Positions 60,940-64,000 of a stretch of 64,000 nucleotides of DNA are shown piece by piece. Source of the DNA: Myxococcota bacterium (GTDB lineage: Bacteria > Myxococcota_A > UBA9160 > PR03). A program made the translations under genes and the position numbers. The notes below the pieces were generated by a model. The model ran no database searches. It was not told where the DNA came from and saw only the letters and a program-made list of their open reading frames with translations. The DNA is taken from assembly GCA_041611735.1 (NCBI GenBank), contig JBFIML010000017.1, positions 386-64,385 of the forward strand, written 5' to 3'. Positions within the stretch are counted from its first letter, which is position 1, and each line of letters starts with the position of its first letter.

Positions 60940-61614
60940 TCAGCGGCCGTCGAGCCGCCCGGCGTCCTGGGCCAGGAAGCCCGCGAGCAGCCGCCCGGCC
61001 GTGGCGTAGAGCGGCTCCGGCGCGTCGCTCGCGAGCCGCGCGGCGAAGGCCGGAATCCAGCGTGCCAGGTGGTCGCGCACGAAGCTGCGGGCCGCGTCCC
61101 GGCAGATCCCCGCGGCCTCGGCGCCCGCTCCGTCCCGGAGCGCCAGGCCCTCCTTCACGGCGAGCAGGTGCATGAACTCGAGCTCGGCGCTGACGTGATC
61201 CAAGCGCTCGCTGCCCGGCGCCACCTCCACCCCGAAGGCCCGATAGAAGCCTGCGATGTCCGCAAGCTCGTAGGTGCGCGTGGGGACCGCCTCGGGGTCC
61301 TCGGTGGTGTAGGAGGTCTCGTGGGGCGGACAGCGCAGGCCACCGCTCGCCTCGAAGGTGCGCTCGTACTGGCTGCGCAGCACCTCGGGCTCGGCACGTT
61401 CGAGCAGCGCCGAGAGCTCCGCCGCGGCGCGCGTCAGCGGCTCTCCGGCGCCGAGACGGGTGAGGGCCCGGCGCAGCTCGGGCAGCTCACGGCCGCGGAG
61501 CGCGGTGAGCGTGGCGGCGTCGGGAGCCCCGAACAGGCGGGCGAGACCACGGTAGACGCGCGCGCGGTCCAGGTGCGGGTCGAGCTCCGGGCCCGCGCTC
61601 TCAGCGCCCGGCAT
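60940..61614 (-). CDS. TorD/DmsD-family molybdoenzyme maturation chaperone
   Basis: PPHETSY, LADIAGFYRAFG, ERLDHVSAELEFM, HLARW. Confidence 0.9.
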   Translation of the reverse strand: MPGAESAGPELDPHLDRARVYRGLARLFGAPDAATLTALRGRELPELRRALTRLGAGEPLTRAAAELSALLERAEPEVLRSQYERTFEASGGLRCPPHETSYTTEDPEAVPTRTYELADIAGFYRAFGVEVAPGSERLDHVSAELEFMHLLAVKEGLALRDGAGAEAAGICRDAARSFVRDHLARWIPAFAARLASDAPEPLYATAGRLLAGFLAQDAGRLDGR

Positions 61615-62425
61615 CCGCCTTCACCGTGGTGCCGAGGGCGAGCGGCACCCAGTTGAGGGTCACCGACTTGCGGCCGTTCACCTCGCCGCGCGAGCCATCC
61701 CAGACCGCCACGATCAGCTGCGCGGTCTCCCCCGGCTTGAAGGCAGGATCCTCGGGATCCCCCGTGGAGAGGCGACGCCGCAGCACGACCGCCCAGCGGC
61801 CGTTGCGGTGCTCGCTCGCGGCGAGCACGTTGCGCCCGGCGCGCCGGGTCAGGGTCCCGAATCCGGTCGCGACGAACTCGACCACCGGCTCGGTGCCCCG
61901 CCAGGCGCGCACCTCGCGCTGCACCGCGGCGTCCTGGGGGAAGTACCAGACCCCCTCCGTGTGGGGATAGCGGGCGGCGAAGCCGCCCTGGCCGCGCGCC
62001 TGGGCCTCCAGGTCCGCCGTCCACTGCCAGATCGAGACCGGGTGATCGGGATCCCCCATGAAGGGCGAGGGGGGCGGCTCGGGCTCCGAGACGGGAAAGC
62101 CCACCGCCGCCGCGTCCCGGAAGGTGTCCACGCCCACCTCCCGGTCCGCGGTCGCGTCCGCCCACTCGAGGCGGATCGCCAGCCACTCCCCGTCGTGCAT
62201 GGCACGCAGGGTGAGCTCCGTCACCGCGCCGCCGCCGTTGGGGGGAACGATGATCTGGGGCGTCAGCGTGAGCGAGGCTGCGGGCGTCGACTTCCAGTCC
62301 GCGGCCTCCGGCCGGCCCGGCACTCCCGCGTGGTGGTAGACCGCCTCGACCCGCGGGACCTGCTGGGCCGGGGCCGCGCCCGCCCACAGCACCAGGCCCG
62401 CCAGCGCGATGCTGCCCGCTCTCAT
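61601..62425 (-). CDS. periplasmic heme-b gamma subunit (EbdC/NxrC-like) of a type II DMSO-reductase-family enzyme
   Basis: Sec signal, LEWAD, FRDAAAVGFP, FMGD, IWQW, AVWDG..E..GRKS (Met/Lys heme ligands). Confidence 0.88.
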   Translation of the reverse strand: MRAGSIALAGLVLWAGAAPAQQVPRVEAVYHHAGVPGRPEAADWKSTPAASLTLTPQIIVPPNGGGAVTELTLRAMHDGEWLAIRLEWADATADREVGVDTFRDAAAVGFPVSEPEPPPSPFMGDPDHPVSIWQWTADLEAQARGQGGFAARYPHTEGVWYFPQDAAVQREVRAWRGTEPVVEFVATGFGTLTRRAGRNVLAASEHRNGRWAVVLRRRLSTGDPEDPAFKPGETAQLIVAVWDGSRGEVNGRKSVTLNWVPLALGTTVKADAGR

Positions 62426-62450
62426 GCTCTCCCTCCTCGTCCGGTGCCCA

Positions 62451-63590
62451 TCAGGTGACGTCGAGCCGGTACGCGCCGCGGCTCCGGTCGTAAGCCGGGC
62501 GCATCTGCGGCGGCTCGGTGATCGGGACCTCGGCCAGCAGCTTGTCGGCCCCGTCGTAGGCCCGGGCCACGCCCTCGCGCACTTCGAAGCGCTCCATGAT
62601 CGCCGGCGAGCTGCCGAAGAGCTGCAGCAGCCCGGCCAGGACCGGGTCGTCCTTGGCGGCGCGATAGCTCTCGACGGCCGCTCCCGCCCCGGGCCCGAAC
62701 ATCTGCTCCAGGTAGTCGACGGGAACGTGGATCGGGGGGATGTAGTACACGTTGGGCGACAGGCCGAACTGCGGGTAGAGCGGCAGCGCGATCTTGCGCA
62801 CGTGGACCAGGTAGTCGATGGGATGGTCCTCGCGCACGCCCTGGCGCGGGTCGCTCACCCAGCCCTGCCCCCGGATCTTCCCGATGCACTGCTCGACGCA
62901 CTGGGTCTGCATACCCTGCTCGAGCTTCGGGTAGCAGGCGATGCACTTCTCCGAGACCTCGTTGTTGGCGCGGAACATGGACTTCCCGTAGGGGCAGGCC
63001 TTCACGCACTCCCGGTAGCCACGACAGCGGCTCTGGTCGATCAGCACCACGCCGTCCTCCGGGCGCTTGTAGATCGCACCTCGCGGGCAGGCCGCCAGGC
63101 AGGCGGGATAGGTGCAGTGGTTGCAGATGCGCGGCAGGTAGAAGAACCAGCGCTCGTGGGTCGGCTGGTTCATGTGAAGCCCGCGGGGCACCGGGCCGCC
63201 GGCGATCTGGTCCTCGCCCAGGTTCGGGTGCGCCCAGTCGTCGTCGCCCGGTCGCACGCCGACCGCCTTCTCCGTGCGGCCGTCGGCGGCCTCGAACACG
63301 GTCTTTCCCTGGTAGACCCCGTCCTTCCAGACCCCCGGGCCGATCTTCTCCAGCACGGCGAGGTCCCATGCCGTGGGATAGCTGCCGTAGGGCTTGGTCT
63401 CGACGTTGTTCCACCACATGTACTCCTGGCCCCGACCGGAGGTCCAAGTCATCTTGCAGGCCATGGTGCAGGTCTGGCACGCGATGCACTTGTTCACGTC
63501 GAAGACCCAGCCGATCTGGCGCTTCGCGTGGGCCTCCTCGTAGGGGTAGTCCATGCTGCGACCGAGCTGCCAGTTCCAGACCTTCGCCAT
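62451..63590 (-). CDS. Fe-S beta subunit, NxrB-like
   Basis: NWQLGR..YPYE, CIACQTCTMAC, WWNNVETKPYG, CNHCTYPACLAAC, CRGYREC, CIACYP..CVEQCIG. Confidence 0.92.
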   Translation of the reverse strand: MAKVWNWQLGRSMDYPYEEAHAKRQIGWVFDVNKCIACQTCTMACKMTWTSGRGQEYMWWNNVETKPYGSYPTAWDLAVLEKIGPGVWKDGVYQGKTVFEAADGRTEKAVGVRPGDDDWAHPNLGEDQIAGGPVPRGLHMNQPTHERWFFYLPRICNHCTYPACLAACPRGAIYKRPEDGVVLIDQSRCRGYRECVKACPYGKSMFRANNEVSEKCIACYPKLEQGMQTQCVEQCIGKIRGQGWVSDPRQGVREDHPIDYLVHVRKIALPLYPQFGLSPNVYYIPPIHVPVDYLEQMFGPGAGAAVESYRAAKDDPVLAGLLQLFGSSPAIMERFEVREGVARAYDGADKLLAEVPITEPPQMRPAYDRSRGAYRLDVT

Positions 63591-63593
63591 GGC

Positions 63594-64000
63594 TCAGCTC
63601 CTCTCGACCTTGACGAAGCCGCCACCGAGGTAGCGTTTCATCGCGTCGCTCTCCTGGGTGGGGCGCACGCCGAGGGTCACGGGACGCCAGGGGCCCTTGC
63701 CGTCCCGCCCGCCCGCCTCGGCCCGCGTGATCTTCACGAAGGACTCGCGCGGCGCTCCGTTCGCGCAGTGGACGTCGGGGCAAAAGCCCTGCTCGATCTG
63801 CTGCCCCATCAGGTTCTTGCGGGTCAGCGTGTCCGTGAGCAGCGTCGGGCGCAGCCACGAGCGTGTCCCGCTCTGGTGGCTGCCGTAGCGGTACATGGAC
63901 TGGTACCCGGTCTCGGGGCTGCGGGCCAGGCCGTCCCGCCGCTCTTCGTGGCCCCGCACGCTGCCGAAGGAGGCGCCCGAGAAGTGGAAGAACGTGCGCG
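63594..64000 (-). CDS. molybdopterin alpha subunit, NxrA-like, C-terminal part (5' end outside window)
   Basis: GSV.GHE.R.DGLA..P.TGYQSM.R.GSHQS.TR.WL.PT..TD.L.RK, GF.PDVHC..GAPRE; precedes beta and gamma genes. Confidence 0.88.

Follow-up and report, generated by a model that had tools for sequence, protein, structure and literature searches.

The nitrite oxidoreductase (NXR) of Kuenenia stuttgartiensis is the nearest relative of known structure of the enzyme presented here. A sister lineage to enzymes of its kind has been published, which unites the NXR of Nitrotoga with the periplasmic nitrate reductases of Hydrogenobacter, Hydrogenobaculum and Beggiatoa (PMC6050957; reviewer summary printed with PMC8387239). 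As described in PMC6050957, the enzyme of H. thermophilus has been characterized as a periplasmic nitrate reductase (NAR), and most known members of this lineage reduce nitrate. NXR-like operons in non-nitrifier phyla, their soluble periplasmic architecture and the undecidable direction of their catalysis also belong to the published record, according to the accessible parts of PMC6050957, PMC10732223 and bioRxiv 10.1101/2020.05.19.103440. Here, an operon of this kind, nxrABCD, is described from a Myxococcota bacterium (GenBank assembly GCA_041611735.1). It is located at the end of a stretch of 64,000 nucleotides, called the window, which corresponds to C17:386-64385 of the host genome (G000; C17 is contig JBFIML010000017.1). 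With a probability of roughly 0.55, the operon is a horizontally acquired cassette for a soluble periplasmic nitrate/nitrite enzyme, which would serve mainly as a respiratory nitrate reductase in this uncultured marine, presumably facultatively anaerobic heterotroph.

The four genes follow one another on the minus strand, at these window positions:

63594..64000, minus strand: 3' end of nxrA (last 134 codons and stop; open reading frame (ORF) 63594..63998, open at the window end), encoding the catalytic subunit with molybdenum bis-pyranopterin guanine dinucleotide (Mo-bisPGD)
62451..63590, minus strand: nxrB, iron-sulfur subunit of 379 aa (P0002), with a Fer4_11 domain and no signal peptide
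61601..62425, minus strand: nxrC, soluble haem-b subunit of 274 aa (P0003), with an EB_dh domain
60940..61614, minus strand: nxrD, TorD/NarJ-type assembly chaperone of 224 aa (P0004), with a Nitrate_red_del domain

Only 3 nt separate nxrA from nxrB and 25 nt nxrB from nxrC, and the start of nxrD overlaps the end of nxrC by 14 nt. The reading frame of nxrA runs past the window to an ATG at C17:67482, giving a protein of 1167 aa (P0001), and the operon of four genes is complete; the contig ends 323 bp upstream of this ATG. The order alpha–beta–gamma–chaperone, which a preliminary description of the window had reported with a partial alpha gene, is seen in these tandem ORFs and is kept in all eight related loci that were annotated, six of which have a Nitrate_red_del gene in the chaperone slot (L012, L013, L015, L016, L032, L125). 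The peptide motifs quoted in that description are literally present: the beta subunit opens with MAKVWNWQLGRSMDYPYEE...CIACQTCTMACKMTWTSGRGQEYMWWNNVETKPYG, and the alpha C-terminus holds both of the quoted strings.

Domain searches with Pfam and with NCBIfam (curated cut-offs) were complemented by a sequence comparison of the subunits with all PDB chains. In Pfam, NxrB matches Fer4_11 (E-value 4.7e-29), NxrC matches EB_dh (1.5e-30) and NxrD matches Nitrate_red_del (1.4e-22). The best NCBIfam models are those of the beta, gamma and chaperone proteins (TIGR03482 for NxrD) of type II dimethyl sulfoxide (DMSO) reductases, all under their curated cut-offs, with 267 bits versus 480.7 for beta, 147.6 versus 169.85 for gamma and 94.7 versus 152.3 for the chaperone. 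The alpha subunit scores 297.4 bits to TIGR03479 (cut-off 984.75), for which the host's six ethylbenzene dehydrogenase (EBDH)-like alphas reach 820-915 bits, and 147.6 bits to the narG model TIGR01580 (cut-off 1084). Among the PDB chains, it is aligned over residues 6-1165 with Kuenenia NxrA (7b04_B) at 906 bits, in comparison to 172 for PcrA, about 125 for NarG of E. coli and 121 for EbdA. The same ranking of the Kuenenia chains applies to beta (7b04_A, 389 bits; PcrB, 221; EbdB, 216; NarH, 191) and to gamma (7b04_C, 137 bits; EbdC, 82), the latter having no match to Pcr or Nar chains.

The cofactor and substrate ligands are also conserved. In the catalytic subunit of the Kuenenia enzyme, KsNXR-A, the cluster FS0 is ligated by C67, D71, C75 and C115, the substrate is coordinated by N70 and the Mo ligand is D275, while the haem ligands of KsNXR-C are Met155 and Lys305, as given in PMC8387239. 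These residues align with C70, D74, C78 and C118 (a 3Cys/1Asp set), N73 and D277 (in a WHTD motif) of NxrA, and with M123 and K253 of NxrC. The resulting FS0 motif, C-x2-N-D-x3-C...C, differs from the H-x3-C-x3-C type (3Cys/1His) of the EBDH-like paralogues in the host. The N-terminus of NxrA, MASTGVSRREFLK, contains the twin-arginine motif SRREFLK at residues 7-13, pointing to the twin-arginine translocation (Tat) pathway, and NxrC has an N-terminal Sec-type signal and is free of transmembrane segments or anchors; the Tat motif, the Sec signal and the missing membrane helix were judged by eye. Since the Tat motif, the Mo Asp, the substrate Asn and the 3Cys/1Asp FS0 set are found in the sister lineage as well, they do not discriminate between the two clades.

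A NarGHI or Nitrobacter-type NXR was ruled out by the twin-arginine motif, the EB_dh domain in place of NarI and the low narG score. Membership of the Ebd/Ser/Clr/Pcr/Ddh groups was ruled out by the scores under the cut-offs of TIGR03479, TIGR03478 and TIGR03477 and by the C-x2-N-D-x3-C form of FS0. The enzyme is thus assigned to the NXR type, with a predicted interconversion of nitrate and nitrite. The preliminary description had proposed an NXR-like rather than NarGH-like enzyme located in the periplasm, with a soluble, Sec-exported and EbdC-like gamma subunit instead of NarI. All of this agrees with the scores, the EB_dh domain and the export features of the subunits, and the full alpha subunit retrieved from the contig contains the Tat motif, the Mo-ligand Asp and the substrate Asn.

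The position of the enzyme among its relatives was determined with a tree of 86 rows, drawn from 75 full-length locus proteins, 27 database proteins and four EBDH-like paralogues of the host (IQ-TREE in quick mode, LG+G4, with Shimodaira–Hasegawa-like approximate likelihood ratio (SH-aLRT) support). Nitrospiraceae anchors were provided by a family search centred on a genome titled 'Nitrospiraceae bacterium', which gave matches in 76 of 121 genomes (a tally including two genomes flagged as unpublished, which bear on no other result), often as two to five copies of 38-40% identity. These anchors carry the Mo-site pattern Y-4x-D-11x-QN, which is the one described for N. defluvii in PMC6050957. 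The NXR-type clade comprises 76 of the 86 rows (SH-aLRT 100) and is divided into two sister groups; other type II enzymes, the host's EBDH-like alphas included, fall outside it. The group of 20 rows (SH-aLRT 100) holds eight Nitrospiraceae-family NxrA together with Planctomycetota-type, Kuenenia-proximal rows, such as the database representative P0127 (1590 bits to Kuenenia NxrA). The group of 56 rows (SH-aLRT 98) contains the window NxrA with all its relatives and also the protein from Inmirania thermothiophila, a cultured organism. The window NxrA shares 37-38% identity with the Nitrospiraceae-family NxrA.

An indel in the beta subunit follows the same division. An 8-residue insertion near the last Fe-S motif is missing in the window NxrB and in four of four clade relatives, and is present in all four aligned Nitrospiraceae-family loci and in Kuenenia NxrB. 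According to PMC6050957, Nitrotoga NxrB also lacks the 8-residue insertion that is found in N. defluvii. Moreover, the Nitrotoga row of the supplementary alignment of PMC8387239, in a machine-read and garbled form (FLCAP-D..HN-LLK...IRISP-YGYG), displays the signature of the 56-row clade. Because of this signature, the missing NxrB insertion and the matching subunit sizes, the 56-row clade most likely corresponds to the published Nitrotoga/Hydrogenobaculum lineage. The label of a Nitrospira/anammox-type enzyme in the preliminary description is therefore correct as to the NXR type, with Kuenenia NXR as the nearest solved relative, but not as to the clade, since alpha belongs to the 56-row sister group and NxrB is devoid of the insertion. 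The tree separates alpha from the EBDH-like alphas; neither a grouping with the Ebd/Ser/Clr/Pcr/Ddh enzymes nor a loss of the nitrate/nitrite residues was found.

One ligand varies within the clade. The fourth FS0 ligand (alpha residue 74) switches between Asp and Cys among very close relatives, as read from an alignment of the first 430 residues of the 86 tree rows. The motif CTPNDTHNC occurs in the window protein, L020 and L033. Of the 19 other rows in the closest subclade of 22 rows, 17 have CTPNCTHNC, Inmirania among them, and in the wider sister clade the motif reads CAPNDTHNC.

The region upstream of nxrA links the operon to other genes of the host. The palindrome TATGAC-N4-GTCATA was found at six exact and five one-mismatch sites in the 4.09-Mb genome, and five composition-matched palindromes gave 0 and 0. 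The sites, called operators here, are located as follows:

C17:67605-67620 and 67675-67690: two exact sites, 123 and 193 bp upstream of the nxrA ATG (centres at about -131 and -201)
C4:7482, 16678, 26046 and 30509: operator sites
C7:115757: operator site
C74:3952, 5117 and 5153: operator sites
C48:12599: operator site

Three EBDH-like operons on C4 have operators 57-78 bp upstream (centres at about -61 to -85). Further operators precede a gene (C4:26137-26544) for a monohaem cytochrome c of 135 aa with a signal peptide (CEACH), an acyl-CoA dehydrogenase/nitroreductase/thiolase operon beside moaA, moaE and a molybdate transporter, and a radical-SAM gene. Another is located directly behind the gene of a Cys-free CRP/FNR-family regulator (C4:6763-7467), which is paired with a divergent hemerythrin gene. 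The regulon of this operator thus covers Mo-enzyme operons, a cytochrome c, beta-oxidation genes and probably moaA. The exact 16-mer was present in 10 of 21 related genomes, the host included (7 of the 12 other same-family genomes), and a reversed control pattern in none. In these relatives, the operator is again positioned ahead of EBDH-like operons, the acyl-CoA dehydrogenase operon and the regulator/hemerythrin pair.

Two same-family genomes extend this picture. In G132, the operator precedes a nirK-cytochrome c gene (TIGR02376, 346 bits, cut-off 296) and a gene resembling that of quinol-dependent nitric oxide reductase (qNOR); this genome combines the NXR-like enzyme with NirK and the qNOR-like gene, and neither NarG nor NapA was found in it. 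In G136 (L125 = C14:80000-99900), an nxrABCD of the 56% type is situated within 19 kb of an EBDH-like operon and an operator. This stretch shows, head to tail, an EBDH-like mobB-gamma-beta-alpha-chaperone operon, the operator, an acyl-CoA dehydrogenase, an acyl-CoA ligase and nxrABCD.

The 5-4-5 core of the palindrome has the geometry of FNR-type boxes. We read the set of sites as a putative DNR/NnrR-like (DNR/FNR-like) regulon, responsive to low oxygen or N-oxides, into which the acquired cassette would have been wired. The operator common to nxrA, the EBDH-like operons and, in a relative, nirK and a qNOR-like gene indicates an anaerobic regulon, and for this reason nitrate reduction is given some preference over nitrite oxidation as the direction of catalysis.

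The EBDH-like genes of the host form a 30-kb cluster at C4:1-31000 (L082, L083). Six alpha genes are present (820-915 bits to TIGR03479), four with twin-arginine motifs and two without a signal, together with two beta genes, one gamma gene, a chaperone, mobB, an acyl-CoA ligase and dehydrogenase, a major facilitator superfamily transporter, a Zn-alcohol dehydrogenase, a CRP/FNR-family regulator and a hemerythrin. By its gene content, the cluster looks like a battery of oxygen-independent hydroxylases.

The metabolism of the host was read from family searches in the genome, which is 95% complete. Six of the seven PheT relatives with a named organism are Myxococcota or Myxococcales, in agreement with the assignment of the genome. 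An aa3-type oxidase, a bc-type complex with a dihaem cytochrome c, an alternative complex III (ACIII)-like ActAB and complex I are encoded. These searches revealed no NarG or NapA above threshold, no NirK, NirS, NrfA (sub-threshold hits only) or cytochrome bd, and the only NIR_SIR protein looks like a sulfite reductase. Among the CO2-fixation markers, no form I-III RuBisCO, ATP-citrate lyase (a sole sub-threshold hit of 24 bits) or CdhC (acetyl-CoA synthase) was found. A RuBisCO-like protein (RLP) at C7:59958-61094 (L085:1959-3095) scores 150 bits to MtnW-type enolase, below the cut-off, and 94 bits to type III RuBisCO; it probably belongs to the form IV RLPs rather than to the carboxylases. 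Overall, the genome suggests a heterotroph that respires and is well equipped for acyl-CoA metabolism. The heterotrophic Myxococcota host supposed in the preliminary description is consistent with the PheT relatives and the missing CO2-fixation markers, and the search for carbon-fixation and denitrification genes that it had proposed recognized none in this genome besides the operon.

The remaining Mo-family hits in the host are the six EBDH-like alphas, an ActB-like protein of ACIII, NuoG and one protein of 657 aa. The latter, a molybdopterin oxidoreductase at C57:9865-11838 (L101:1866-3839), is encoded between katG and moaE/moeA, and its best models are Fdh-alpha (122 bits) and NasC (115 bits, cut-off 1100), both far below cut-off. 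Apart from this weakly NasC/Fdh-alpha-like protein, the operon is the only recognizable nitrate/nitrite converter of the genome. A second, divergent haem-copper oxidase subunit I is located at C48:7933-10185 (L084), with 184 bits to COX1 and only 53 bits to the CtaD model. It was rejected as a nitric oxide reductase, having no significant similarity to the qNOR-like protein of G132.

Relatives of the enzyme are widespread but scattered. Pattern matches in GTDB contigs, taken at one genome per species, encode a relative in 561 of 569 cases. The best 80 of these 561 matches (73 loci) belong to Myxococcota, Tectimicrobiota, SAR324, Acidobacteriota, Planctomycetota, Chloroflexota, Nitrospirota (Magnetominusculus), Sumerlaeota and others, and no cultured nitrite oxidizer is named among them. 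In the phylum of the host, 25 of 301 sampled genomes have a match. Within its family, a match is present in 3 of 16 other genomes at only 56-57% identity, whereas matches of 73-77% come from other families. The flanking genes are unrelated across the eight annotated loci. Clues to a redox partner in these flanks are limited to the Magnetominusculus locus, with a dihaem cytochrome c directly upstream, and in L012 a divergent histidine kinase/LuxR pair stands beside the cassette. The patchy spread, the closest relatives in other families and the unrelated flanks are those expected of a mobile accessory cassette and point to its horizontal acquisition. In view of these 561 species genomes, and of the sister-lineage enzymes and the NXR-like genes of non-nitrifier phyla already published, the earlier wording of a "non-canonical enzyme" was too strong. 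Sequencing runs matching near-identical operon DNA are marine metagenomes, and no RNA run is present among the matches listed.

Some carriers have unexpected labels. An nxrA of 81% identity is found on a 6.5-kb contig of a metagenome-assembled genome (MAG) titled Nitrospiraceae (L010/L086, G001); the rest of that family has the Nitrospira-type copies of 38-40%. Several other carriers bear implausible third-party annotation (TPA) labels, namely Spirochaetaceae, Rickettsiales, Enterobacterales, Bifidobacteriaceae and Geobacter. Mis-binning, mislabelling or recent transfer is the likely origin of these cases.

The proposed assembly is as follows. NxrA, with Mo-bisPGD and FS0, would be exported via Tat and would carry along NxrB with its four Fe-S clusters, while NxrC, with one Met/Lys-ligated haem b, would be exported via Sec; NxrD would act as the cytoplasmic assembly chaperone. 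In the direction of nitrate reduction, quinol electrons would reach periplasmic c-type cytochromes through the alternative complex III or the bc-type complex, and would then flow via NxrC and NxrB to NxrA and nitrate, with nitrite as the end product. The co-regulated EBDH-like dehydrogenases exported via Tat could feed electrons in at cytochrome c. A putative periplasmic circuit from these dehydrogenases through cytochrome c to the NXR-like complex would be an attractive corollary; four of the six alphas carry RR motifs.

Several observations weigh against nitrate reduction as the main activity. The Kuenenia NXR works in both directions, as reported in PMC8387239, and Nitrotoga, a true nitrite oxidizer, belongs to the lineage assigned here (PMC6050957). 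This assignment is itself based on motifs and one indel, the sequences of Nitrotoga, Hydrogenobacter, Hydrogenobaculum, Beggiatoa and Nitrospina being outside the tree. Searches of the genome gave no nitrite reductase, and nitrate respiration would hence leave nitrite to accumulate; the genome is 95% complete, and its contig stops 323 bp upstream of nxrA. The aa3 oxidase and the c-type cytochromes would serve nitrite oxidation equally well. As to the regulon, the candidate regulator has no Cys cluster and is thus not a classical O2-sensing FNR, and co-regulation may mean cofactor supply rather than anaerobiosis, since Mo enzymes are prominent in the regulon, which also reaches moaA. With centres at about -131 and -201, the sites of nxrA are farther from the ATG than the sites at the EBDH-like operons, which are centred at about -61 to -85. 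Of the 19 closest related loci, 16 showed no operator in the 400 bp ahead of nxrA, and none was seen there in G132 either. G136 has a canonical NarG as well, so NarG and the NXR-like enzyme are not simple substitutes. A function mainly as nitrite oxidoreductase, passing electrons from periplasmic nitrite via NxrC and cytochrome c to the aa3 oxidase for lithoheterotrophic energy or nitrite removal, is nevertheless considered unlikely, although it draws on the Nitrotoga NXR, the oxidase and cytochromes, and the missing means to dispose of nitrite formed from nitrate. Every catalytic and cofactor ligand of proven NXR is kept, including the FS0 Asp where most of the closest relatives have Cys, but a reviewer's survey accompanying PMC8387239 states that this Asp tracks phylogeny and not direction. 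PMC8387239 classes the haem b with Met/Lys ligation as high-potential, and near-identical DNA occurs in marine metagenome runs. On the other hand, the missing CO2-fixation markers do not fit a canonical nitrifier, the operator is common to O2-independent EBDH-like hydroxylases and, in relatives, to nirK and a qNOR-like gene, and, in the account of PMC6050957, nitrate reduction is the activity of most lineage members whose physiology is known. The wider proposal that marine heterotrophic Myxococcota and other non-nitrifier carriers oxidize nitrite aerobically through cytochrome c and the aa3 oxidase, gaining supplementary energy, is more doubtful still. The earlier statement that direction cannot be read from protein sequence holds.

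It is improbable that the substrate is another one, whether an oxyanion (for example chlorate, perchlorate or selenate) or, as in the EBDH-like paralogues, an organic compound, with the NXR likeness being merely ancestral. Type II DMSO-reductase enzymes have repeatedly switched substrate, the operon is co-regulated with EBDH-like enzymes, and all four proteins are under the curated cut-offs of every NCBIfam model. However, the substrate-coordinating Asn is kept, which is Ile in EBDH (PMC8387239), and the Mo-site motif WHTDLPPGHPMVTGQQT is almost invariant over the 56-row clade. The score to the solved NXR is 5-7 times that to PcrA or EbdA, and the true EBDH-like alphas of the host surpass by far the 297 bits of NxrA to TIGR03479. 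An origin foreign to this genome, by a mis-binned or chimeric contig end, or a silent recent acquisition devoid of physiological role is more improbable again. The terminal position on the contig, with a tRNA-Pro gene 1.4 kb away, the nearest relatives in other families and the 81%-identical copy in the Nitrospiraceae-titled MAG, a sign that binning errors or transfers do happen, would fit it. Yet the 67.8-kb contig carries housekeeping genes, among them the pheT whose relatives are 6/7 Myxococcota/Myxococcales, and its GC (guanine and cytosine) content is continuous at 0.69-0.75. In addition, the four ORFs are intact with conserved ligands, and the two exact operators upstream are lineage-specific, occurring otherwise on C4, C7, C74 and in same-family genomes. 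A transferred cassette used mainly for nitrate respiration is the reading we retain.

The surroundings of the operon show few further features. A 119-aa ORF (window 60515-60874, minus strand) directly downstream of nxrD has weak similarity to Dabb/DUF1330 (ABM-like barrel; E about 5e-3) and is not kept behind the cassette in relatives. A tRNA-Pro(GGG) gene (window 59459-59535, plus strand) is located 1.4 kb beyond nxrD, with the contig ending just upstream of nxrA; the cassette may lie in an island beside this tRNA gene. A scan for sigma-70 promoters around the operon ends gave none upstream of nxrA; its one promoter-like site (window 60485-60514) is downstream of the 119-aa ORF next to the operon, and a scan of the same ends for intrinsic terminators found none. 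A sigma-54 promoter upstream of nxrA was rejected, as one 2-mismatch match was seen elsewhere in the locus and about two are expected by chance.

The new element is the palindrome linking nxrA with EBDH-like molybdoenzyme operons, a lineage-specific regulatory twist. In the literature covered by title and abstract opening, with subscription journals outside this scope, there was no treatment of a Myxococcota enzyme of this clade or of a link to an EBDH-like regulon, and no paper joining Inmirania with nitrite oxidoreductase was found. The accessible parts of PMC10367259, PMC8748734 and PMC5276818 contain nothing on this clade regarding Myxococcota or Inmirania nxr. Surveys routinely score nxrA-like marker genes as nitrite oxidation. 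Here, a complete NXR-type operon with perfect ligands occurs in a heterotroph whose genome yielded no carbon-fixation marker, and the sister clade to which it belongs extends to at least 561 species genomes from many phyla. If the regulon reading is true, many metagenomic 'nxr' hits would be periplasmic nitrate reductases, and nitrate respiration of marine Myxococcota would be linked to the anaerobic hydroxylation of hydrocarbon-like substrates. If aerobic nitrite oxidation is true, the carriers would be unrecognized non-autotrophic contributors to marine nitrate formation. The shared operator and the candidate regulator provide a testable handle on the direction, which sequence alone cannot settle.

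In comparison with known systems, the NXR-ABC of Kuenenia stuttgartiensis (PDB 7B04; PMC8387239) has the same three subunits, which align over their full length, with a Tat-signalled alpha, the 3Cys/1Asp FS0, the substrate Asn and the Mo-ligand Asp. The cysteine clusters of beta are the same, as is the soluble EB_dh-type gamma with its Met/Lys haem b. In contrast to the window enzyme of the sister clade, it belongs to the anammox/Nitrospira clade and carries the 8-residue NxrB insertion. Its NxrC is longer (322 aa versus 274 aa), and the host described here is a heterotrophic myxobacterium devoid of an anammoxosome.

The nxrABCD of Nitrotoga (PMC6050957; 10.1101/317552) is described with the same operon order ending in a chaperone, a periplasmic and apparently soluble location and a Sec-signalled NxrC without a membrane helix. 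The sizes given in 10.1101/317552 are close for NxrA (1169 aa versus 1167 here) and NxrB (385 versus 379), NxrB lacks the insertion and, in the alignment cited above, the N-terminal signature motifs match the 56-row clade. Nitrotoga is, however, an autotrophic nitrite oxidizer, whereas no CO2-fixation marker was found in the genome of the window; its NxrC has 371-372 aa, versus 274 aa here, and its Mo-site pattern ends in QM according to PMC6050957, versus QT here. The nitrate reductases of Hydrogenobacter thermophilus, Hydrogenobaculum and Beggiatoa, compared by description only, belong to the same published sister lineage, are periplasmic, have the FS0 Asp (reviewer's statement, PMC8387239) and catalyse the direction favoured here. 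The H. thermophilus enzyme is described as membrane-bound, whereas by inspection the window enzyme has no anchor.

The NXR/NAR enzymes of Planctomycetota, Verrucomicrobiota and other MAGs (PMC10732223; bioRxiv 10.1101/2020.05.19.103440) are reported as nxrABC in phyla not known to nitrify, with a Tat-signalled alpha, a Sec-signalled soluble gamma and a direction left open by the authors. By its isolate name, the close relative L015 (75% identity) belongs to the same tunnel data set. In their accessible text, these papers do not treat Myxococcota carriers or a regulatory link to EBDH-like operons. Finally, EbdABCD (PDB 2IVF) has the same type II DMSO-reductase architecture, with an EB_dh haem-b gamma and a dedicated chaperone. 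It differs from the enzyme of the window by an alpha matching at only 121 bits, by the 3Cys/1His ligation of FS0 and, as stated in PMC8387239, by the Ile that takes the place of the substrate Asn.

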